Both the position numbers and the translations under genes were made by a program. From contig DYJI01000007.1 in the NCBI GenBank assembly GCA_020723185.1, forward strand, positions 59,003-123,002: DNA of 64,000 nucleotides, given 5' to 3'. A model generated the notes under the pieces. The model was not told the origin of the DNA. It ran no database searches and worked only from the letters and a program-made list of their open reading frames with translations. This document shows positions 1 to 17,298 of this stretch, in pieces (positions within the stretch are counted from its first letter, which is position 1; each line of letters begins with the position of its first letter). This DNA is from Sideroxydans lithotrophicus. Lineage in GTDB: Bacteria; Pseudomonadota; Gammaproteobacteria; Burkholderiales; Gallionellaceae.

Positions 1-1493
1 ACCCGGACGACCTGTTCGTGGACAAGGATGGCAACCCGGTGCGTCTGGACAAGGGCTTCTCATGGGAATATCCGCTGTCCGCACACGGCCTGATGCATAA
101 CGTGATCACCAATGCCTGGCGCGGCGATCCGTACAAGATCGACACGCTGCTGCTGTTCATGGCCAACATGGCATGGAACTCTTCCATGAACACCAGCGAA
201 GTGCGCAAGATGCTCACCGACAAGGATGAGAATGGCGAGTACAAGATCCCCAACATCGTGGTGTGTGATGCGTTCCATTCCGAGACCACGGCCTTCGCTG
301 ACCTGATCCTGCCGGATACGACCTACCTCGAACGCCACGACGTGATGTCCATGCTGGACCGTCCGATCTCCGAGTTCGATGGCCCGGTGGATTCGGTGCG
401 CATCCCGGTGATGCCGCGCACCGGCGAATGCCGTCCGTTCCAGGAAGTGCTGATCGAACTGGGGACACGTTTGAAGCTGCCTGCCTTCGTGACGGCGGAC
501 GGGGCACGCAAGTATCGCGATTACCCCGACTTCATCGTCAACTGGGAGACCGCGCCGGGTTCCGGCATCGGCTTCCTTTCCGGCTGGCGCGGCAAGGGCG
601 GCGAGAAGAGCATGAAGGGGGAGCCGAACCCGAACCAGTGGGAGATGTATGCCAAGAACGACTGCGTGCACCACGAGGTGCTGCCGCGTTCCTATCAGTT
701 CATGCGCAACTGGAACCAGGGTTATCTGGAGTGGTCGCAGCGCAACGGCATCACGCGCTATTCCGAGCCCATCCTCATCCACCTGTATTCCGAGGTGCTG
801 CAGAAATTCCGTCTCGCAGCCCAGGGCAAGAGCATCACGCGCCAGCCGCCCAAGCATCTGGCCAAACGCGTCGAGACCTATTTCGATCCGCTGCCGTTTT
901 ACTACGAGCCGCTGGAGACGCAGGCCAGTGACAAGCAGAAGTATCCGCTGTCCGCCGTGACGCAGCGTCCGATGGCGATGTATCACTCGTGGGATTCGCA
1001 GAACGCCTGGTTGCGCCAGATCCACGCGCACAACTATCTGTATGTGAACGCACAGACCGCGAAGAACGCCGGCATCGCCGATGGCGACTGGATCTGGTGC
1101 GAATCGCAATGGGGCAAGGTGCGCTGCATGGCGCGTTACAGCGAGTCGGTGGAGCCGGGCACGGTATGGACCTGGAACGCCATCGGCAAGGCCGCCGGTG
1201 CGTGGAACCTGACGCCCGACGCGAACGAATCGCAGCAGGGCTTCCTGCTCAATCACGTGATCTCGGAAGAGTTGCCGGCGCAAGCCGACGGCAAGCGCTT
1301 CTCCAACTCCGACCCGATCACCGGTCAGGCGGCGTGGTATGACGTGCGCGTGCGCATCTACAAGGCGGAAGATGGCGAGCCGCATCACACCTCACCGCAG
1401 TTCCCTCCCATGAAGGTCTATCCAGGAATGAAACAGCGTCCGAACTGGCTGGCTTACTTTTCCGGCCTCAAGAAGAAAGGCGGTGCGAAATGA
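1..1493 (+). CDS. soeA: Molybdopterin oxidoreductase catalytic subunit, SoeA-like sulfite:quinone oxidoreductase (5'-partial)
   Basis: Frame is open from nt 3. Has DMSO-reductase-family motifs (ADLILPDTTYLERHD; C-terminal TQRPMAMYHSWDSQNAWLRQI) and is followed by SoeB/SoeC-like genes. Confidence 0.85.
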   Translation, partial: PDDLFVDKDGNPVRLDKGFSWEYPLSAHGLMHNVITNAWRGDPYKIDTLLLFMANMAWNSSMNTSEVRKMLTDKDENGEYKIPNIVVCDAFHSETTAFADLILPDTTYLERHDVMSMLDRPISEFDGPVDSVRIPVMPRTGECRPFQEVLIELGTRLKLPAFVTADGARKYRDYPDFIVNWETAPGSGIGFLSGWRGKGGEKSMKGEPNPNQWEMYAKNDCVHHEVLPRSYQFMRNWNQGYLEWSQRNGITRYSEPILIHLYSEVLQKFRLAAQGKSITRQPPKHLAKRVETYFDPLPFYYEPLETQASDKQKYPLSAVTQRPMAMYHSWDSQNAWLRQIHAHNYLYVNAQTAKNAGIADGDWIWCESQWGKVRCMARYSESVEPGTVWTWNAIGKAAGAWNLTPDANESQQGFLLNHVISEELPAQADGKRFSNSDPITGQAAWYDVRVRIYKAEDGEPHHTSPQFPPMKVYPGMKQRPNWLAYFSGLKKKGGAK

Positions 1494-2221
1494 CCCAACT
1501 CGCTCTCGTCATCGATCTGAATGTCTGCGTGGGCTGCAGTGCCTGCGTGACCAGTTGCAAGGAATGGAACACCTCCGGCTCCGCGGGTCCACTGGTGGAT
1601 GAGCGTCCCTACGGCGAGAACCCGACCGGTACGTTCTTCAATCGCGTTCAGACTTACGAAATGGGCACGTTCCCGAACAGCGAGACCATGCACTTCCCGA
1701 AATCCTGTCTGCACTGCGAAGACCCGGCCTGCGTGCCAGTGTGCCCGACCGGCGCTTCCTACAAGCGCAAGGAAGACGGCATCGTGCTGGTGGACTACGA
1801 CAAGTGCATCGGCTGCAAGTACTGCTCGTGGGCATGTCCGTACGGTGTACGCGAGTTCGATGAGCAGCAGAAGGTGATGAAGAAGTGCACCCTGTGCGTG
1901 GACCGCATCTACGACATGAGCATGCCGGAAGCAGACCGCAAGCCTTCCTGCGTGAAGGCTTGCCCGACCAGTGCGCGTCTGTTCGGCGACATCCACGACC
2001 CGGAGTCGGCAGTGTCGGTGGCGATCCGCGAAGAGGGGGGCTATGCGCTGATGCCGGAGTGGGGCACACATCCTTCCAATCACTACCTGCCGCGCCGCAA
2101 GGTGAAGATGAAGATCCATGCGGATGAACTGGAGCGTGCGGACAATCCGCTCAAGCTCGACCATCAGCTGCCCATGCCGGACAAGGACGCGTCTACGATG
2201 GACGACGCGTCGGCCTGGTAA
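1490..2221 (+). CDS. soeB: 4Fe-4S ferredoxin subunit SoeB
   Basis: Four Cys clusters (CVGCSAC, CLHCEDPAC, CIGCKYCSWACP, CTLC...CVKACP); ATGA overlap with soeA. Confidence 0.85.
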   Translation: MTQLALVIDLNVCVGCSACVTSCKEWNTSGSAGPLVDERPYGENPTGTFFNRVQTYEMGTFPNSETMHFPKSCLHCEDPACVPVCPTGASYKRKEDGIVLVDYDKCIGCKYCSWACPYGVREFDEQQKVMKKCTLCVDRIYDMSMPEADRKPSCVKACPTSARLFGDIHDPESAVSVAIREEGGYALMPEWGTHPSNHYLPRRKVKMKIHADELERADNPLKLDHQLPMPDKDASTMDDASAW

Positions 2222-2241
2222 CCAGAACAAAGCGAGACATC

Positions 2242-3225
2242 ATGAAACCAGCATTCTCTGTGATCTTTTTGACGACCCTGATCGGGGCAGGGCAAGGCCT
2301 GTTCCTGGCCCTGTTCACGCATCAGTCCTATGCGCTGTTCGGTCTGCTGCCGATGCAGTCGGATGCGTTCTACGGCTATGGCAGCGCGCTTGCGCTGCTT
2401 CTGCTGTGCGCGGGCCTGTTTGCGGCTGTGTTCCACTTGGGCAAACCCAGCTACATGTTCACGCGCGCCTGGCGCGGCATATTGCAGTGGCGCACCTCCT
2501 GGATGTCGCGCGAACTGATCGCCTTGCCGGCGTTCATGGCCGGTGTGTTCGTGTTCGGCCTGATCCATCTGACCGGTTTCCGTCCGGTCATGGTGACATT
2601 GCCCAGCGGTTTGCCCATCGACCTGTCGGTGGTCGCGGGGGTGGTGGTGACGCTGCTGGCGTTCGCGCTGTTCATCTGCACCGCGATGATCTATGCCTGC
2701 CTGCGCTTCCTGCGCGAGTGGCACACCCCGCTGACGGTCATCAACTACACCCTGATGGGCGGTTCGTCCGGCTTCATCCTGGCGGCGTTCTATGCGGCTT
2801 CGGCAGCACCGGATCAGGCGGACTTCTTCGCCGGCTGGGCCATCATCATCACCGTGCTGGCCCTGATCGGTCGTGTGGCATCGCTGATCCGCAACGCGCG
2901 CCTGAAGCCGACCTCGACCATCCAGACCGCCATCGGTGTGAAGCATCCCAAGATCACGCAGCGCTCCATGGGCGCGATGGGCGGCACATTCAACACGCGC
3001 GAGTTCTTCCACGGCAAGAGCGATGCGTTCCTGCGCGCGATCAAACCGGCTTTCCTGTTGCTGGCTTTCGTGCTGCCGCTGCTGTTGCTGGTGCTCAGCC
3101 TGTCCACGCACGCTCTGCTGGGGTTGGCGTTTATACTGCAATACATCGGGTTGTTGGCCGAGCGCTGGTTCTTCTTCGCGCAGGCCAACCATCCGCAGAA
3201 TCTCTATTACCAGACCGTAGGCTGA
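2242..3225 (+). CDS. soeC: DmsC-like membrane anchor SoeC
   Basis: Polytopic; N-terminus MKPAFSVIFLTTLIGAGQG, FHLG and SWMSRE motifs, C-terminal ERWFFFAQANHPQNLYYQ. Confidence 0.85.
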   Translation: MKPAFSVIFLTTLIGAGQGLFLALFTHQSYALFGLLPMQSDAFYGYGSALALLLLCAGLFAAVFHLGKPSYMFTRAWRGILQWRTSWMSRELIALPAFMAGVFVFGLIHLTGFRPVMVTLPSGLPIDLSVVAGVVVTLLAFALFICTAMIYACLRFLREWHTPLTVINYTLMGGSSGFILAAFYAASAAPDQADFFAGWAIIITVLALIGRVASLIRNARLKPTSTIQTAIGVKHPKITQRSMGAMGGTFNTREFFHGKSDAFLRAIKPAFLLLAFVLPLLLLVLSLSTHALLGLAFILQYIGLLAERWFFFAQANHPQNLYYQTVG

Positions 3226-7020: not shown

Positions 7021-7039
7021 ATAGCCCGAAAGGGTTATT
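7021..7039 (+). terminator. Possible hairpin terminator after the transporter genes
   Basis: ATAGCCC-GAAA-GGGTTAT stem-loop; U tract weak. Confidence 0.4.
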
Positions 7040-7132
7040 AATGGCGACACTTGCTGGTTATGGACGCGATTTGGGGGCTGGTATCAAATGGCCCTTCGAT
7101 CAGTAGTCCTTATTTTGTCAACAGGGGGCTGG

Positions 7133-7609
7133 ATGCATAGCTGTAAGGATGTGGATAGCGGACGTCGACAGGCACTCAAAACCGGCGGTGGTCTGGGCGT
7201 ACTGGGGCTGTTCGCCATGCTCGGTCTGTTGCCTCCCTCAGCATTCGCCGGGGCCGATCGCAAGGCGTTCGAGCACAAGACGCTGAACGAGGCGCTCGAT
7301 GCATTGGGTGGCCAGATCGCCGGAGAGAATCCACTCATCACGCTGACTGCGCCCGATGTCGCCGAGAACGGTGCGCTGGTGCCGGTGACCGTCGAGAGCA
7401 CTCTGGCCGATGTCGAGCAGATCTCCATCCTGGCCGACCGCAATCCCACCATGCTGATCGCGCACTACACCCTGCCCAAGGGCACCGATCCCTATCTCTC
7501 CACTCGCATCCGCATGGCCGAGACGTCGAATGTGATCGTGCTGGTCAAGGCGGGCGGGCGTTTCTATCGCGCATCCAAACAAGTCAAAGTCACGGCGGGG
7601 GGGTGCTGA
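7133..7609 (+). CDS. soxY: Sulfur carrier SoxY (Tat signal; C-terminus ends GGC)
   Basis: SGRRQALK Tat motif, APDVAENGALVPV, TRIRMAETSNV, KVTAGGC-stop. Start placed at ATG 7133 (GTG 7151 is an alternative). Confidence 0.85.
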   Translation: MHSCKDVDSGRRQALKTGGGLGVLGLFAMLGLLPPSAFAGADRKAFEHKTLNEALDALGGQIAGENPLITLTAPDVAENGALVPVTVESTLADVEQISILADRNPTMLIAHYTLPKGTDPYLSTRIRMAETSNVIVLVKAGGRFYRASKQVKVTAGGC

Positions 7610-7923
7610 TGTCTACACCTTCCAAAATGCGCGCATCGCTCAAGGACGGCGGTTACGTCGAAGTCAGGATGTTGATGTACCACGAAATGGAGAACGGCCG
7701 TCGCAAGGATGAAGCCGGCAATATCGTGCCAGCCTGGCATATCACTGAATTCAGGGTGCAACATCTGGGACGGACCGTGCTGGAAGGACAGTTCGGTACC
7801 TCCGTGTCGAAGAATCCGTATCTGGTCTTCCGCTTCCGGGGCGGGAACAAAGGGGACAAGCTGTCCCTTTGGTGGCAGGACAACCGGGGTGACAGTCGCG
7901 TGGATGACGCGGTCATCGATTGA
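7609..7923 (+). CDS. soxZ: Sulfur carrier SoxZ
   Basis: HEMENGRRKD, SVSKNPYLVFRFRG, WQDNRG motifs; TGATG overlap with the soxY stop. Confidence 0.88.
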   Translation: MSTPSKMRASLKDGGYVEVRMLMYHEMENGRRKDEAGNIVPAWHITEFRVQHLGRTVLEGQFGTSVSKNPYLVFRFRGGNKGDKLSLWWQDNRGDSRVDDAVID

Positions 7924-7994
7924 CCAGGGCAGGTGCCGCCGCCGGGCGGGGAATGCAGTGATTGTCGTTCAATTCAATTCAGGGAGGTTTGACT

Positions 7995-8303
7995 ATGATT
8001 TCGCTACGAATGCTATTGGTCGTCATCGGGCTGGGCTTGTGCTCCGTCGCGCAGGCGGCAGGGGTCGATAATCACGCGCGCAACATGGCGGCATCCTGTT
8101 CCGCCTGCCACGGAACGGATGGCTACAGCGAAGGTGGCATGCCCGTGATCGCGGGTATGGATAAAAAGCTGTTCGTTACCACAATGAAGGACTTCAAGTC
8201 CGGTGCGCGTCCGGCCACTGTCATGCACCAGCACGCCAAGGGTTATTCCGACGAGCAGATCGAGATGCTCGCGAAGTTCTTCGCCGCGCAGAAGCGCAAG
8301 TGA
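7995..8303 (+). CDS. fccA: Monoheme cytochrome c subunit of flavocytochrome c sulfide dehydrogenase
   Basis: Signal peptide, CSACH heme motif, TVMHQHAKGY; GGAGG RBS upstream; adjacent to fccB. Confidence 0.8.
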   Translation: MISLRMLLVVIGLGLCSVAQAAGVDNHARNMAASCSACHGTDGYSEGGMPVIAGMDKKLFVTTMKDFKSGARPATVMHQHAKGYSDEQIEMLAKFFAAQKRK

Positions 8304-8338
8304 TGCTGTGCCAACCAGACCGATAGAGGGAGAACAAT

Positions 8339-9616
8339 ATGTCATTCAGTCGTCGTGATTTTCTGAAGGCCGGTGTCGCCGGTATCGCAATCGGATCGTT
8401 CCCTGGACTGGCTTTTGCATCCAGCGAACTGGTCAAGAAGAAAGGCCAGCGTGTGGTGGTGGTGGGTGGCGGTTTCGGCGGTGCTACCGCTGCCAAGTAC
8501 ATCCGCAAATGGAGCAAGAACAAGATCGAGGTGGTGTTGGTCGAGCGTAATGCCAATTTCATCTCCTGCCCGATGAGCAACACCGTGCTCGGCGGCACCC
8601 GCAAGATCGAAGACCTGACCATGAGCTATGGTACGCTGCAGAAGAAGTACGGCGTGAAGCTGATCAAGGGCGAGGTCACTGCCATCGATCCGGAGAAGAA
8701 GAAAGTCATGCTGGCGGACGGCCATCTCAGCTATGACCGCCTGATCGTTTCGCCCGGTGTCGACTTCATGTTCGACAAGGTCGAGGGGCTGGATGCCAAG
8801 GTGGCGAGCGAGAGCATCCCGCACGCCTGGAAGGCCGGGGCGCAGACCGTCCTGTTGCGCAAGCAACTGGAACAGATGGCGGACGGCGGCGTGTTCGCCC
8901 TCGCCATCCCGAAAGGTCCCTATCGTTGCCCGCCGGGACCGTATGAGCGGGCCTGCCAGGTGGCGAGCTACCTGAAGGAGCACAAGCCCAAGTCCAAGGT
9001 GCTGGTGCTGGATGCCAATCCGGACATCGTCTCCAAGAAGGGGCTGTTCATGGCGGCGTGGAACGAGCTGTATCCGGGCATGGTGGAATACCGTCCGAAC
9101 TCCATGGTGCTGGGTGTCGATGTGGCGACCAAGACGGCCAAGACCGAATTCGATGATGTGAAGGCGGACGTGCTGAACGTCATTCCGCCGATGCGTTCGG
9201 GTGTGGTGGCGGACATGGCAGGGTTGGCCAATGTCGATGCGCGCTGGTGCGGGGTGGATTTTCTGAGCTATGAATCCAAGGTGCACCAGAACATCCACGT
9301 CATTGGTGATGCTGTGTCGGCCGCGTTGCCGAAGTCGGGACATATGGCGACCTCGCAGGCCAAGATCTGTGCGGCGGCGGTGATCGAGATGATGAGCGGC
9401 AAGCCGGTCGATCAAGCACCCGTCATCGCCAACACCTGCTACAGCATGGTCAGCGGCGAAGAGGCGATGCATGTGGCGAACGTGTACCACTTCAACGCCG
9501 AGAAGATGGCGATGGTGCCGGCGGAGGGCGGTGGGGTGTCGGCCACGCGCTCTGAAATGGAGGGCGCATTCGCCGGTTACTGGCTGAAGAACATCCTCAA
9601 CGACGTATTGCTCTGA
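8339..9616 (+). CDS. fccB: Flavocytochrome c sulfide dehydrogenase flavoprotein (FccB/SoxF)
   Basis: Tat signal SRRDFLK, VVVVGGGFGG FAD motif, CPMSN, CPPGPYERA, NTCYS. Confidence 0.9.
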   Translation: MSFSRRDFLKAGVAGIAIGSFPGLAFASSELVKKKGQRVVVVGGGFGGATAAKYIRKWSKNKIEVVLVERNANFISCPMSNTVLGGTRKIEDLTMSYGTLQKKYGVKLIKGEVTAIDPEKKKVMLADGHLSYDRLIVSPGVDFMFDKVEGLDAKVASESIPHAWKAGAQTVLLRKQLEQMADGGVFALAIPKGPYRCPPGPYERACQVASYLKEHKPKSKVLVLDANPDIVSKKGLFMAAWNELYPGMVEYRPNSMVLGVDVATKTAKTEFDDVKADVLNVIPPMRSGVVADMAGLANVDARWCGVDFLSYESKVHQNIHVIGDAVSAALPKSGHMATSQAKICAAAVIEMMSGKPVDQAPVIANTCYSMVSGEEAMHVANVYHFNAEKMAMVPAEGGGVSATRSEMEGAFAGYWLKNILNDVLL

Positions 9617-9625
9617 TGTTCCATT

Positions 9626-9675
9626 ACGCCCCCGCCGCGACGGCTTGCCGCGCGTGGCGGGGGCGTTTCTTTTTT
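9626..9675 (+). terminator. Rho-independent terminator after fccB
   Basis: ACGCCCCCGCCGCG...CGTGGCGGGGGCGT stem followed by TTCTTTTTT. Confidence 0.75.
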
Positions 9676-9735
9676 GCCTCGAGGGTGTGTCCCAATCATA
9701 ACTCCTACGGGTTACCTGTTTCACCCGTCGTGGCT

Positions 9736-9767
9736 ATGGACGTCCATGCAAGGTATATCCCTATAAT
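9736..9767 (+). promoter_or_regulatory. Candidate tusA-dsrE2 promoter: TATAAT -10 with a 12-bp palindrome at the -35 position
   Basis: ATGGACGTCCAT (9736-9747) is a perfect palindrome; TATAAT at 9762-9767. Confidence 0.5.
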
Positions 9768-9827
9768 GCAAGTCAGGTTTTGTGCGGCGACGCACTATTT
9801 TCGTAAACAACGAGTAGGAGAGAAACA

Positions 9828-10055
9828 ATGAATTTCGATAAAGAGCTGAACGCACGTGGCCTGTCCTGTCCTTTGCCTATCGTCAAGACCAAGAAGGCAC
9901 TGGTCGATATGACCTCCGGCCAGATCCTCAAGGTCATCTCGACCGACACCGGCTCCGTCAAAGACATGGCCGCGTTCGCCGAGCAGACCGGCAATGCGCT
10001 GGTAGCGCAGGAAGAAGTCGGCGGCGAATTCGTCTTCTACATGAAAAAGGGCTAA
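9828..10055 (+). CDS. tusA: Sulfurtransferase TusA
   Basis: 75 aa; LNARGLSCPLP motif. Confidence 0.9.
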   Translation: MNFDKELNARGLSCPLPIVKTKKALVDMTSGQILKVISTDTGSVKDMAAFAEQTGNALVAQEEVGGEFVFYMKKG

Positions 10056-10090
10056 GGCCCTTTTCCAACTCACTCACAGGGAGCACGCAC

Positions 10091-10558
10091 ATGGCAAAGA
10101 AAATGGCGATCATCGCTACCAAAGGCACGCTGGATATGGCCTATCCGCCGTTCATCCTCGGCTCGACCGCTGCCGCACTCGGTTATGACGTCCAGATATT
10201 CTTCACTTTCTACGGTCTGCAACTGCTGCGCAAGGATTTGTCCGACGTGAAGATCAGCCCGCTGGCGAACCCGGCCATGCCGATGCCGGTGCCGATGCCG
10301 GTGATGGTGCAGATGCTGCCGGGTATGGAAAGCATGGCGACCATGATGATGAAGCAGAAGCTGGCCAAGCATGGCGTCGCTTCTCTGGAAGAATTGCGCG
10401 ACCTGTGCCTGGAAGCCGATGTGAAGTTCGTCGCCTGCCAGATGACCGTGGACCTGTTCGAGTTCGACAAGAGCGAATTCATCGACAACGTCGAATACGG
10501 TGGCGCCGCGACGTTCATGAGTTTCGCCGGCGATACCGACATCTGTCTGTTCGTTTAA
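10091..10558 (+). CDS. dsrE2: DsrE2-type sulfur relay protein
   Basis: IIATKGTLDMAYPPFILGSTAAALG, FFTFYGL, ACQMTVDLF; follows tusA as in known rhd-tusA-dsrE2 clusters. Confidence 0.8.
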   Translation: MAKKMAIIATKGTLDMAYPPFILGSTAAALGYDVQIFFTFYGLQLLRKDLSDVKISPLANPAMPMPVPMPVMVQMLPGMESMATMMMKQKLAKHGVASLEELRDLCLEADVKFVACQMTVDLFEFDKSEFIDNVEYGGAATFMSFAGDTDICLFV

Positions 10559-10640
10559 GGGGATTGCAGTAGGAAACATAAGCTGTTGCTGTTTGTAGCA
10601 TTTGTCGCACTTGTGTACACATCAATCAGGGAGAGAACAA

Positions 10641-11879
10641 ATGAAATTCAGTAGATCGGCAGTCGCAGTATTGGTACTTGCAGCACTTTCGTCGCAACAA
10701 GCATTGGCAACCAACGGCGCAGCGATGATGGCCGTCGGTTCACAGAACACCGCGCTGGGCGGGACAGGCGTCGCCAACTTCACCGGTGCCGACAGCGCCT
10801 TCGCCAACCCGGCGATGCTGGCAAAATCCCAAGGCAATGAAGTCACCGGCGGTATCGTGCTGTTCAAGCCGGATGTCACCAACAACGGCATGGGTGGATC
10901 GGTTGCCAGCAGTTCTGCCAATACCAGCTACATCCCTGATGTCTCCTATTCGAATCGCATGAGCGACAGCCTGACCTTTGGCGTGGCGATGGCAGGTATC
11001 GCGGGTATGGGTGTGGATTACACAGGAGCGTCCGCATCAACACACATCAAGGCCAAAACAGAACTCAGCATCTTGCACATCGTTCCGACCATCGCCTATA
11101 ACCAGGCGAACTACGGTGTCGGTTTCTCGCCTGTGGTGCAGTATGGATCGCTGATGATCTCCTACAATAACTACAATCCATCCACACTTCAGGGCATGGA
11201 CAACAATCCATCCCATAAGGCTGACAGCAAGACCAGCATGGGTTATGCATTCGGTGGTTACTTCGATGTGAGTCCGGTGTTGACTTTGGCCGCGTCCTAC
11301 AGTTCCGAGATCAAAGCCAAGTATGGTACGCAGTTGTCTGTTGCTGGTCAGGGTTTTGGGCTGACAGGTGCTGCTGGCACGGCCATGGCGGCTTTTGGTG
11401 ATGATTTGAATCAACCTGCACAGATCAAGTTCGGTGCGGCATTCGCGATGAGTGATGCCGTCAAGTTGACGGCAGATTACAAGTCCATCCAGTATGGCAG
11501 TGCAGGGGGCTGGAAGGATTTCAACTGGAAGAACCAGACTGTTGTTTCTGTCGGTGCGAAGTACTCTACCGGTAGCTACTGGATCGGAGCGGGCTATAAC
11601 CACGCCGATAATCCTATCGCTGTCTTGGGCGACACCACATACCGCAATGCGGTGGTGGATTTCTTCAACAACATGATGTTCCCCGGTATCGTGAAAAGTT
11701 CCTACACTTTCGGTGGCGGCTACACGTTGTCAAAAGAGATGGATATCGAAGCTGCGGCCGTCATCACGCCCAAGGTCAACACTTCGGTGAATGTAACGAA
11801 GATCAATGCAATGCTGCCAGCGAACGCCACTTCGCATGCCCAGAGTTCCTACTCGGTCTCTCTGCGCTACAAGTTCTAA
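10641..11879 (+). CDS. FadL/TodX/OmpP1-family outer-membrane channel
   Basis: Signal peptide, ALGGTGVA...NPA hatch motif, C-terminal YKF; amphipathic beta-strand pattern. Confidence 0.8.
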   Translation: MKFSRSAVAVLVLAALSSQQALATNGAAMMAVGSQNTALGGTGVANFTGADSAFANPAMLAKSQGNEVTGGIVLFKPDVTNNGMGGSVASSSANTSYIPDVSYSNRMSDSLTFGVAMAGIAGMGVDYTGASASTHIKAKTELSILHIVPTIAYNQANYGVGFSPVVQYGSLMISYNNYNPSTLQGMDNNPSHKADSKTSMGYAFGGYFDVSPVLTLAASYSSEIKAKYGTQLSVAGQGFGLTGAAGTAMAAFGDDLNQPAQIKFGAAFAMSDAVKLTADYKSIQYGSAGGWKDFNWKNQTVVSVGAKYSTGSYWIGAGYNHADNPIAVLGDTTYRNAVVDFFNNMMFPGIVKSSYTFGGGYTLSKEMDIEAAAVITPKVNTSVNVTKINAMLPANATSHAQSSYSVSLRYKF

Positions 11880-11903
11880 CGGACTGGCAGTTTGTACCTA
11901 ACG

Positions 11904-11929
11904 ACGGCACCCTTCGGGGTGCCGTTTTT
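11904..11929 (+). terminator. Rho-independent terminator after the FadL-like gene
   Basis: ACGGCACCC-TTCG-GGGTGCCGT followed by TTTT. Confidence 0.85.
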
Positions 11930-11965
11930 ATTGCATCAGATTGCAAGAAAGTGATAGGGCGTATG

Positions 11966-11982
11966 TGCTAGAATGCGCGCCC
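11966..11982 (+). promoter_or_regulatory. typA promoter (extended -10 with GC-rich discriminator)
   Basis: TG-C-TAGAAT followed by GCGCGCCC, the same discriminator seen at rpsB. Confidence 0.55.
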
Positions 11983-12008
11983 TTTGAATTCCATTCAGGT
12001 AGTAGATC

Positions 12009-15186: not shown

Positions 15187-17298
15187 ATGATGGCCACGAC
15201 TCATACCTGGAGATTCTTCCGTGCAGGCGGTTTCGACCAGGTGCAGCTGGACAGCGGTGCCGACCTGTTGGCGCTGAAAGAACTGGACCAGAAACTGTGG
15301 GTGGCGTTGAGCTGTCCGGTGCATGGCATCGAGTTCGATGGCCGCACGCTGGAGATGATCGACACGGATGGAGACGGTCAGGTACGCGCCAACGAGGTGT
15401 TGGCGGCGATCGCCTGGGCAGGGACGCTGCTGAAAGACGCCGACCTGCTGACCAGGGGGGCGGACAGGCTGATGTTGGCGGATATCAACGACACCACGGC
15501 GGAGGGGCGGCAGGTGCTGGCATCTGCGCGCCTCATCCTGAGCGCGCTCGGCATGCAGGATGCCACCCATATCTCGCTGGCAGATCTGACGGACATCAAT
15601 AACTTCGTGGCCGGTCTGCAGTTCAACGGTGACGGTGTGGTCTGTGCCAAACAGGTCGACGATGCTGGTGTGCGTGCGACGGTTGAGGATATCGTCAAGA
15701 CTGCAGGCTCCTTAGCGGATGCGAGTGGCGAGCAAGGTATCGACCAGGCGATAAGCGACAGATTCTTCGCCGAAGCTGCGGCATATGCCGACTGGTATGC
15801 CCGCGGCGAGGCGGATGCGGGCATTTTGCCGTTGGGGGCGGGCAGCGATGCAGCAGCACAAGCTTTGCAGGCGGTGCGGGGCAAGGTCGATGATCATTTC
15901 GTCCGCTGCCAGTTGGCAGCATACGACGCGCGTGCGGCTGCACCACTGAGTCGCGCGGTAGAGGATTACCAGCACCTGGCGGCGCAGTGTCTGTCCGTAC
16001 AGAACGAGGAGGTGGAAGCTTTCCCGCTGGCGACCGTTGCAGCAGGCGAGCCGCTGGCCCTGCAGGCGGGCATCAATCCGGCGTGGCAGGACAGGATCGA
16101 CGCACTGAGCCAGCTCGTGTTGTTGCCGCTGTTGGGTGAACGAAAAAGTCTGTCAATAGGTGAGTGGCGGGCGCTGTGTGCCCGCTTCGATGCATTCTCC
16201 GACTGGCGGAAGTCGAACCCGGCCCCGCAACTGGACGGGCTGGGCATCGCCCGTGTGCGCGAGATATTGTCATCTGGGCAGCAGGAGCGGATCGATGCGC
16301 TGATCGCGCAAGACAAGGCGCTTGCCCCGGAGATCGAGGCGGTCCACTCGGTAGAGCGTCTGATCCGATATCAGCGAGACTTGTTCAAGCTGGTGAACAA
16401 TTTCGTGTCTTTCCGTGAGTTCTACTCCGGCAGGGGTAAGGCCGTATTCCAGGTCGGCACACTGTATCTGGACGGGCGCAGTTGCGAGCTGTGCGTCAAG
16501 GTGGAGGATGTGAATGCCCATGCGACGTTCGCCAACAGCAGCGGCGTGTGTCTGGTCTATTGCGCACTGGTGCGCAAAGGCGGCGGCGAGAAGATGAACA
16601 TCGCCGCCGCGTTCACGGCAGGCGATTCCGATTTCCTGGCAGTGGGTCGGCACGGGATATTCTATGACCGCAATGGAGACGACTGGAACGCTACCATCCT
16701 GCGCATCAATGACCACCCGATCAGCATCCGCCAGGCTTTCTGGTCGCCATACAAGAAACTTTCCAGGACCATCGCCGAGCAATTGCAGAAGTTCGCCGCC
16801 ACCAAGGCGGGCAAGGTGCAGGACGTGATGGGCAAGACGGTGGCCGGCTCGGTCGAGCCTGCCGCCAAGCCTGCGTTCGATGTCGCCAAGTTCGCCGGTA
16901 TCTTTGCCGCGATCGGGTTGGCCATCGGTGCCATCGGCGGCATCCTGGCATCCGTGGTAGGCGGCATCCTGAGCCTGAAATTCTGGCAGATACCGTTGGC
17001 CGTCCTTGGTCTGATGCTTGCGATCTCGCTGCCTTCGATGACCCTGGCCTGGCTCAAGCTGAAGAAGCGCAATCTCGGCCCCATCCTCGATGCCTGCGGC
17101 TGGGCGATCAACGCGCGCGCATTGATCAACATCCCGTTCGGCACTTCGCTCACCGGGCTGCCCAGGCTGCCGGAGGGCGCGCAGCGCGCGTTGTTCGATC
17201 CTTACGCCGAGCAGCGCCACGCATGGCCGTATCTGCTCGGCCTTTTCTTGCTGACTGCCATGCTGGCCTGGGCGTGGTACGCCGGATATTTTGAATGA
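15187..17298 (+). CDS. Conserved hypothetical 703-aa protein with an EF-hand-like loop and C-terminal TM helices
   Basis: Long ORF with host codon bias and GGAGG RBS; DTDGDGQVRANE 12-residue loop; hydrophobic segments near the C-terminus. Confidence 0.75.
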   Translation: MMATTHTWRFFRAGGFDQVQLDSGADLLALKELDQKLWVALSCPVHGIEFDGRTLEMIDTDGDGQVRANEVLAAIAWAGTLLKDADLLTRGADRLMLADINDTTAEGRQVLASARLILSALGMQDATHISLADLTDINNFVAGLQFNGDGVVCAKQVDDAGVRATVEDIVKTAGSLADASGEQGIDQAISDRFFAEAAAYADWYARGEADAGILPLGAGSDAAAQALQAVRGKVDDHFVRCQLAAYDARAAAPLSRAVEDYQHLAAQCLSVQNEEVEAFPLATVAAGEPLALQAGINPAWQDRIDALSQLVLLPLLGERKSLSIGEWRALCARFDAFSDWRKSNPAPQLDGLGIARVREILSSGQQERIDALIAQDKALAPEIEAVHSVERLIRYQRDLFKLVNNFVSFREFYSGRGKAVFQVGTLYLDGRSCELCVKVEDVNAHATFANSSGVCLVYCALVRKGGGEKMNIAAAFTAGDSDFLAVGRHGIFYDRNGDDWNATILRINDHPISIRQAFWSPYKKLSRTIAEQLQKFAATKAGKVQDVMGKTVAGSVEPAAKPAFDVAKFAGIFAAIGLAIGAIGGILASVVGGILSLKFWQIPLAVLGLMLAISLPSMTLAWLKLKKRNLGPILDACGWAINARALINIPFGTSLTGLPRLPEGAQRALFDPYAEQRHAWPYLLGLFLLTAMLAWAWYAGYFE

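Follow-up and report, generated by a model that had tools for sequence, protein, structure and literature searches.

The window analysed here is a 64,000-nucleotide stretch of a Sideroxydans lithotrophicus genome (family Gallionellaceae; assembly GCA_020723185.1, contig DYJI01000007.1, positions 59,003 to 123,002). Its central element is a three-gene unit, tusA-dsrE2-fadL, in which genes for a sulfur carrier and a sulfurtransferase are followed by a gene for a FadL-type outer-membrane channel. The genome (G000) is 2.6 Mb in size and 99.98% complete, and carries dsrAB and dsrC on the same contig as the unit. The unit and its boundaries comprise the following features.

9626..9675, + strand: intrinsic terminator closing the preceding soxYZ-fccAB unit (-35.5 kcal/mol, z -4.65, then a U-run)
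9828..10055, + strand: tusA, cytoplasmic sulfur carrier, 75 amino acids (aa), CPxP motif (PF01206, E 1.8e-24)
10091..10558, + strand: dsrE2, DsrE2-type sulfurtransferase, 155 aa, with Cys106, Cys116 and Cys152 (PF13686, DrsE_2, E 1.4e-51)
10559..10640, + strand: dsrE2-fadL spacer, 82 bp, with ribosome-binding site GGGAGAG (10629-10635); lacks both a terminator and a conserved promoter
10641..11879, + strand: gene for the FadL-type outer-membrane channel, 412 aa (PF03349, Toluene_X/FadL, E 2.8e-19; AlphaFold2; Foldseek)
11903..11931, + strand: intrinsic terminator closing the tusA-dsrE2-fadL unit (-29.2 kcal/mol, z -4.28)

A bounded unit of two sulfur-relay genes and a channel gene

The cysteine motif of TusA reads CPLP. 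Translation of fadL starts at the ATG at 10641, which is preceded by the ribosome-binding site and followed by a signal peptide ending in ALA|TNG; dsrE2 and fadL are thus exactly 82 bp apart. No terminator-like site was found in this spacer, which folds no better than shuffled controls (z +1.1). An internal promoter was also considered and rejected, as the spacer holds no consensus match and the spacers of orthologous loci conserve only the ribosome-binding site. Downstream, the fadL terminator consists of a 10-bp G+C-rich hairpin and a T-run. Since strong terminators stand on both flanks, the three genes tusA, dsrE2 and fadL form a bounded unit that would be co-transcribed and is preceded by 170 bp of upstream DNA of its own. 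A 71-aa open reading frame (ORF) at 9616-9831, overlapped by the fccB terminator and the tusA promoter, is probably not a gene.

The codon usage of fadL sets it apart from its surroundings, with a G+C content at third codon positions (GC3) of 0.649 against 0.71-0.85 in neighbouring genes and 0.757 in the canonical fadL elsewhere in the genome. No beta-oxidation or aromatic-catabolism genes lie within ~10 kb. The terminator-free gap, the strong downstream terminator, the more A/T-rich codon usage and the absence of such catabolic genes had all been described in an earlier, sequence-only reading of this DNA, and each of these observations holds.

The third gene encodes a divergent FadL-fold protein

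The fadL product matches PF03349 over profile positions 5-421 of 421, scoring 69.3 bits against a cut-off of 29.7. It is one of two PF03349 proteins encoded in the genome, the other being canonical (382 bits, contig C1), and the dsrE2-linked protein (69 bits) is a divergent paralogue of this ordinary FadL. Its N-terminus, MKFSRSAVAVLVLAALSSQQALA|TNG (coded by 10641-10709), is a Sec signal peptide (…QQALA|TNG), and the chain ends in SLRYKF, with Phe as the final residue. An AlphaFold2 model based on 34 homologues (predicted local distance difference test score 86.7, predicted template-modelling (TM) score 0.86) contains 14 long predicted strands and a helical N-terminal segment, residues 24-66, that forms the predicted hatch, a plug of ~40 residues in this family. 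In the DSSP assignment of this model, strand 3 (111-126) is interrupted at 121-123, around the invariant G122, a break that may correspond to the S3 kink behind the lateral opening of FadL channels. The top Foldseek matches were TodX (3bs0), FadL (3pf1), a Pseudomonas aeruginosa FadL homologue, TbuX and CymD (E ~1e-23, TM ~0.7, 13-18% identity). A phmmer search against PDB sequences returned no match, so the link to FadL and TodX in the PDB came from the fold search alone.

Residues associated with transport are strongly conserved. In the hatch, the NPA motif keeps N56 and P57 in all 34 sulfur-linked homologues and A58 in at least 90% of them, and the aligned homologues share G122 and a mature N-terminus reading T-(N/D)-G without exception. 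Judged by its predicted structure, the fadL product is a genuine outer-membrane channel of the FadL/TodX fold. The protein contains 17 methionines and no cysteine, and any conduction through it would therefore be passive; the thiol-based "activation" of sulfur proposed for Acidithiobacillus outer-membrane proteins was excluded for the same reason. In public databases, dsrE2-linked FadL proteins are labelled "long-chain fatty acid transport protein".

The position after dsrE2 is kept while its occupant changes

Among reference genomes, the tusA-dsrE2-fadL triplet is retained in seven of the eight loci found with the FadL protein, whereas its flanks vary, with soeABC, SulP or fccAB upstream and bipA, soxYZ or other genes downstream. 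A search of 151 Gallionellaceae genomes with the same protein gave 63 matches, including some at only 26-39% identity, and 51 of the 63 lie directly 3' of dsrE2 on the same strand, mostly at a distance of 60-160 bp. Another 45 dsrE2 loci had no match to the query. In every one of the 20 that were fetched (L009-L028), the next same-strand ORF is FadL-like, with a signal peptide and a TNG or TDG N-terminus, except that in L020 the FadL-like gene comes second, behind an sqr-like gene. All nine of these FadL-like proteins that were scanned against Pfam match PF03349.

The slot after dsrE2 thus holds three deep subtypes: A (that of the window, ~410 aa), B (435-510 aa) and C (408-445 aa), with B and C only 21-27% identical to the window protein. 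The subtype differs even between genomes whose DsrE2 proteins are 97-98% identical (e.g., G042, G080, G101 and G130), where the FadL occupants share only 21-39% identity. From these sequence comparisons, the channel gene looks to have been repeatedly replaced at a fixed position, the occupant being exchangeable and the slot kept. The sequence-only reading had named, as evidence against itself, a clade whose orthologues lie mostly outside sulfur clusters; instead, 30 of the 33 informative subtype A loci in the family directly follow dsrE2.

A gene for a sulfide:quinone oxidoreductase (SQR)-like flavoprotein stands between dsrE2 and fadL in L020 (5585-6856) and in two further genomes, G120 and G037, with gaps of ~1.4 kb.

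Linkage extends beyond the Gallionellaceae

At the level of the order, a FadL-family gene lies alongside dsrE2 in 17 of 40 sampled loci from at least nine other families. At the level of the class, we sampled 400 Gammaproteobacteria, with at most 3 per family, and scored as strong any FadL match with E <= 1e-80 to a profile of a mixed alignment (A1). DsrE2 was present in 101 of the 116 genomes with a strong FadL-clade match, compared to a base rate of 151/400 (odds ratio ~31); this tally includes one genome flagged as unpublished (G836), which has a weak FadL match and no DsrE2 and whose removal changes nothing, and leaves another (G788) unscored. The sequence-only reading had suggested checking whether this FadL clade co-occurs with tusA and dsrE across genomes, and the outcome is strongly positive. 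Of the 149 best FadL places, 32 have a listed dsrE2 no more than 3 kb away and another 13 have one at 3-20 kb, and the arrangement was confirmed in twenty fetched examples. Among the 20 best FadL places without dsrE2 on their contig, three adjoin tusA and soxYZ.

Six of the twenty fetched examples (L094, L096, L098, L099, L106 and L107), from several other gammaproteobacterial families, have dsrE2 flanked by two FadL-family genes. In these loci a canonical-like copy is on the opposite strand, and the other copy belongs to the sulfur-linked clade.

For metagenomes, A1 was too diverse and a type-C alignment (A2) was used instead. In this independent sample, anchored on type-C FadL, 61 loci were informative: 35 adjoin dsrE2 or tusA, and another 13 adjoin either membrane proteins of the "sulphur transport" type (PF04143/DUF6691) or a fusion of persulfide dioxygenase and rhodanese. 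Gene calls made independently and already annotated with Pfam likewise gave the order soeABC-TauE-Usp-tusA-dsrE2-fadL adjoining dsrC and dsrAB. Beside annotated dsrE2-linked relatives, no beta-oxidation or aromatic-degradation genes were recognised, the neighbours being sulfur genes. In a FastTree phylogeny, subtypes A, B and C form one well-supported superclade apart from canonical FadLs, and dsrE2-linked members occur in all three, although the linked fraction on this tree is inflated because many rows were sampled through dsrE2.

The metagenomic loci also place the channel gene in another sulfur setting, which lacks dsrE2 and is made up of YeeE-like and persulfide-dioxygenase genes. In L183 (1914-7259) and L137 (4947-7176), the genes after a type-C FadL gene encode a pair of YeeE-like membrane proteins (PF04143/DUF6691), and 5' of the type-C FadL gene in L183 is encoded a 969-aa protein in which a flavoprotein is fused to a persulfide-dioxygenase-like domain of the metallo-beta-lactamase kind and to two rhodanese domains.

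One promoter design precedes tusA, soxYZ-fccAB and sqr

The region between the fccB terminator and tusA contains conserved promoter elements, and a second copy of the same design precedes the neighbouring sulfur operon.

9699..9714, + strand: distal palindrome TAACTCCTACGGGTTA, 7-2-7-like, ~67 bp before the putative transcription start, conserved before tusA
9719..9742, + strand: proximal conserved box TTTCACCCGTCGTGGCTATGGACG, overlapping the -35 position (conservation and weight matrix)
9762..9767, + strand: putative -10 hexamer TATAAT of the tusA promoter (conservation)
9782..9795, + strand: hairpin GTGCG-N4-CGCAC and T-run in the tusA 5' leader, sequence conserved in nine aligned relatives
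7022..7066, + strand: second copy of the design, before soxYZ-fccAB, with palindrome TAGCCCGAAAGGGTTA (7022-7037) and GGTTATGGACG box
7088..9616, + strand: soxY-soxZ-fccA-fccB, the preceding operon, encoding a periplasmic sulfur carrier and flavocytochrome c sulfide dehydrogenase (Pfam SoxY, SoxZ, cytochrome c and FCSD), with fccA-fccB at 7962-9616
18-3225, + strand: soeA (partial), soeB and soeC at the start of the island, followed by a SulP permease and a CitMHS/TrkA-C permease

The design combines a 7-2-7-like palindrome with a GGyTAT(G/A)GACG box (also given as GGyTATGGACG). Before tusA, the box reads …CACCCGTCGTGGCTATGGACG and comes ~20 nt further along than the palindrome, with TATAAT 19 nt after the box. 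Upstream of tusA, 24 related loci from the Gallionellaceae and two sister families retain this design. In the genome it occurs only twice more, before soxY and, outside the window, before sqr (contig C8:26919-26960). Genome-wide, a weight matrix built from the tusA sites of relatives alone gave rank 2 to the sqr promoter and rank 5 to that of soxY. Through this common design, fadL appears to share one regulon with the two sulfide oxidases.

Directly upstream of sqr are genes for a histidine kinase with GAF and HisKA_3 domains and for a response regulator of the NarL/GerE type (contig C8:25545-28844; locus L114:6546-9845), the regulator gene being at C8:26972-27631. A 7-2-7-like palindrome is the type of site bound by NarL-type regulators. 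Across the 151 family genomes, orthologues of the regulator and DsrE2 occur together in 91 and are both absent from 50, with the regulator alone in 4 and DsrE2 alone in 6, and the regulator is often encoded 9-18 kb from dsrE2 on the same contig. This GAF-kinase/NarL-type pair is a candidate sulfide-responsive two-component regulator that may bind these promoters. CsoR/CstR-type repressors, whose operators look similar, were considered as readers of the palindrome and rejected for this organism because PF02583 was not found in this nearly complete genome.

The hairpin in the tusA leader could be an attenuator or a protein-binding site; it showed no covariation and no Rfam match, and no Rfam family matched anywhere in 9600-12000.

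The wider neighbourhood of the unit consists of soeABC, the SulP and CitMHS permeases, soxYZ and fccAB on one side, and of bipA and rmuC 3' of fadL, with nadE beyond, within ~10 kb, on the other. A 703-aa ORF between rmuC and nadE (15187-17298) has no Pfam match. Elsewhere in the genome, a second soxYZ pair (contig C2:157731-163152) is 47-55% identical to that of the window and has a DUF302 gene ~4.5 kb away. A DUF302 periplasmic partner for the unit was considered and set aside, as the two DUF302 genes of the genome are both on other contigs.

A possible route for hydrophobic zero-valent sulfur

Our favoured, still tentative, reading is that tusA-dsrE2-fadL is a regulated transcription unit of a sulfide/zero-valent-sulfur regulon and that its channel passes hydrophobic zero-valent sulfur. 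Sulfide oxidation by SQR and FccAB is extracytoplasmic and yields zero-valent sulfur, which in this Sideroxydans-like bacterium with a reverse-Dsr pathway would be made in the periplasm. The FadL channel would then allow passive, thiol-independent passage of S8 or long neutral polysulfanes across the lipopolysaccharide barrier, while TusA and DsrE2 would take cytoplasmic sulfane sulfur towards DsrEFH/DsrC/DsrAB and SoeABC. With the three genes acting as one regulated unit, the channel would join extracellular or outer-membrane sulfur to cytoplasmic oxidation, uptake or re-uptake being the favoured direction. From published work, FadL-family channels pass hydrophobic solutes by lateral diffusion (PMC7728783), and TusA and DsrE-type proteins pass sulfane sulfur to DsrEFH, DsrC and DsrAB in the cytoplasm (PMC11094781). 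The uptake of hydrophobic sulfur had already been put forward in the sequence-only reading. Genomic co-occurrence and the promoter design common with sqr and soxYZ-fccAB now lend it partial support; the substrate, the direction and the co-transcription are inferred.

A broader version of this scheme seems to us more doubtful. Here, the whole FadL superclade A/B/C would be an outer-membrane conduit for zero-valent sulfur, followed by an inner-membrane step (YeeE/PmpAB-like where present), DsrE2 with TusA, and finally Dsr or sHdr; in the Gallionellaceae it would be co-induced with sqr and soxYZ-fccAB by a sulfide- or polysulfide-responsive GAF-kinase/NarL-type system acting via the 7-2-7-like palindrome.

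Several observations weigh against a sulfur-conducting channel. The support for such a role, for the window protein as for any member of the superclade, comes from genes and their arrangement. Most type-B-like relatives (~480-500 aa) in the superclade have no recognisable sulfur neighbour. Many proteins of this kind are found among the 17 of the 20 best class-level places lacking dsrE2 that adjoin no recognisable sulfur gene. Among the type-C metagenome loci, 13 of 61 show neither sulfur context, and in the family three type-A orthologues lie outside the dsrE2 locus, one of them adjoining YeeE-like sulfur-transport genes. Fisher p-values overstate the evidence because the genomes in the tallies are related. 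As to physiology, the cultured relative S. lithotrophicus ES-1 converted thiosulfate to tetrathionate alone, and elemental sulfur (S0) was not detected (PMC8788666); S0 use in Sideroxydans is therefore unproven. Neither the supplement of that paper nor the magnetite preprint reports anything on expression of the ES-1 homologues of these genes.

A further difficulty concerns the inner membrane. A hydropathy scan of the window's DsrE2 did not find the two transmembrane segments of the membrane-anchored DsrE2A type, the highest 19-residue Kyte-Doolittle mean being 1.23. With no stretch of transmembrane-grade hydrophobicity, DsrE2 was ruled out as the inner-membrane link. The transmembrane prediction for DsrE2A has itself been questioned, and the role of DsrE2A called unclear (PMC11094781). 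Since no YeeE-like partner was found in the genome either, the inner-membrane step is missing from the scheme.

Organic substrates, export and other explanations

The alternative that survives best, although we consider it unlikely, is that the channel passes a hydrophobic organic compound, either organosulfur (methanethiol, dimethyl di- or polysulfides, organic persulfides) or another apolar metabolite co-regulated with sulfur oxidation. Every characterised FadL/TodX/CymD substrate is an organic hydrophobic compound (PMC7728783), which also counts against zero-valent sulfur as the cargo, and the predicted fold and hatch are conventional. Some relatives adjoin persulfide-dioxygenase-rhodanese or YeeE-like genes, typical of reactive-sulfur detoxification in heterotrophs. 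However, no organosulfur-catabolism gene was found in the window or in conserved neighbourhoods, and the partners of the channel are genes of inorganic sulfur metabolism (dsrE2, tusA, soxYZ, fccAB, sqr, soeABC and dsrAB).

Improbable, in our estimation, is a channel that serves as an export valve, through which S8 or polysulfanes formed by SQR and FccAB would leave for extracellular deposition, protecting the envelope, with no import. This would suit a promoter design common with sqr and fccAB, whose products both yield zero-valent sulfur, as well as the position of sqr between dsrE2 and fadL in some relatives; FadL channels being passive, the gradient would set the direction. Yet the tightest and oldest partner of the channel gene is dsrE2 with tusA, whose cytoplasmic products act on sulfur that is being consumed, and FadL hatches are not known to allow flow in the reverse direction.

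We see little chance that the gene encodes an ordinary long-chain fatty-acid or outer-membrane lipid transporter parked behind dsrE2 with no functional tie to sulfur. The database name says as much, and the low GC3 and subtype swapping suggest a mobile, replaceable gene. Nevertheless, the genome already has a canonical FadL, a FadL-family gene fills the dsrE2 slot in nearly every Gallionellaceae genome examined despite the 21-27% identity between subtypes, and the pairing recurs across many families and metagenomes. A neutral passenger is disfavoured because the slot is kept filled and the pairing is so widely recurrent.

A surface role, such as contact with or adhesion to sulfur particles, with exposure to phages or predators driving subtype turnover, is very improbable: subtype swaps beside 97-98% identical DsrE2 do resemble diversifying selection on surface proteins, but the hatch, NPA motif, strand-3-break glycine and TNG/TDG N-terminus are invariant in all three subtypes, and such invariant transport hallmarks argue for a conserved channel function.

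Significance and comparison with known systems

S8 and long polysulfanes are barely soluble in water, and their crossing of the outer membrane is an open step of the microbial sulfur cycle; according to PMC10045233, sulfur oxidisers, whether acidophilic or neutrophilic, have no confirmed outer-membrane transporter for S0. A widely conserved gene with a fitting passive, hydrophobic mechanism, fixed genomic partners and a candidate regulator and operator makes this question testable. If passage of zero-valent sulfur is indeed the function of the channel, it would correct a widespread "long-chain fatty acid transport protein" annotation and provide a marker gene for S0 use in metagenomes.

Among the papers listed in the literature search, none with both FadL and tusA or dsrE2 deals with sulfur oxidation, most treating tRNA modification; those listed on sulfur globules, polysulfide or sulfur oxidation did not mention FadL, and none paired it with persulfide dioxygenase or YeeE. 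The sole published precedent that we found is a one-sentence proposal in a preprint (bioRxiv 10.1101/172254) that Chlorobaculum tepidum CT2230, a FadL-family protein of the sulfide-repressed PSOS-2 regulon, moves hydrophobic sulfur chains. What is new here is the replacement of subtypes at a fixed slot, a common promoter design for which a two-component system is the candidate regulator, and the branch linked to YeeE and persulfide dioxygenase.

Other proposals for S0 uptake involve OprD-like porins of Campylobacterota and Omp40-type proteins of Acidithiobacillus, which were put forward from expression data and are unconfirmed (PMC10045233). These belong to unrelated folds and families, and the Acidithiobacillus model needs thiols, whereas the FadL protein has no cysteine. 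Compared to CT2230, the link to sulfur is in both cases regulatory; CT2230 however belongs to another phylum, has no reported linkage to dsrE2 or tusA, and is expressed at a lower level on sulfide than on thiosulfate or S0, while the unit studied here has a promoter design in common with sulfide oxidases. The tusA-dsrE2 pair itself resembles rhd-tusA-dsrE2 of Allochromatium vinosum, also a reverse-Dsr sulfur oxidiser (Stockdreher et al. 2014, as cited in PMC11094781), but the unit in the window lacks a rhodanese gene and has an outer-membrane channel gene appended, which goes unmentioned in the literature searched.

The closest structural counterparts are the FadL and TodX families. With E. 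coli FadL (1t16, 3pf1), a long-chain fatty-acid channel, the window protein has in common PF03349, a predicted 14-strand barrel, the NPA hatch, a predicted break in strand 3, a signal peptide and a C-terminal Phe; it differs in its low identity (13-14% in structural alignment), in having no fad genes nearby and in sitting within a sulfur operon. TodX, its best Foldseek match (E 1.3e-23, 18% identity), forms with TbuX and CymD (3bs0, 3bry, 6z34; PMC7728783) a group of monoaromatic-hydrocarbon channels whose genes, like the one described here, lie inside the operon of the pathway they would serve, except that here the operon partners are sulfur carriers instead of aromatic-degradation enzymes.

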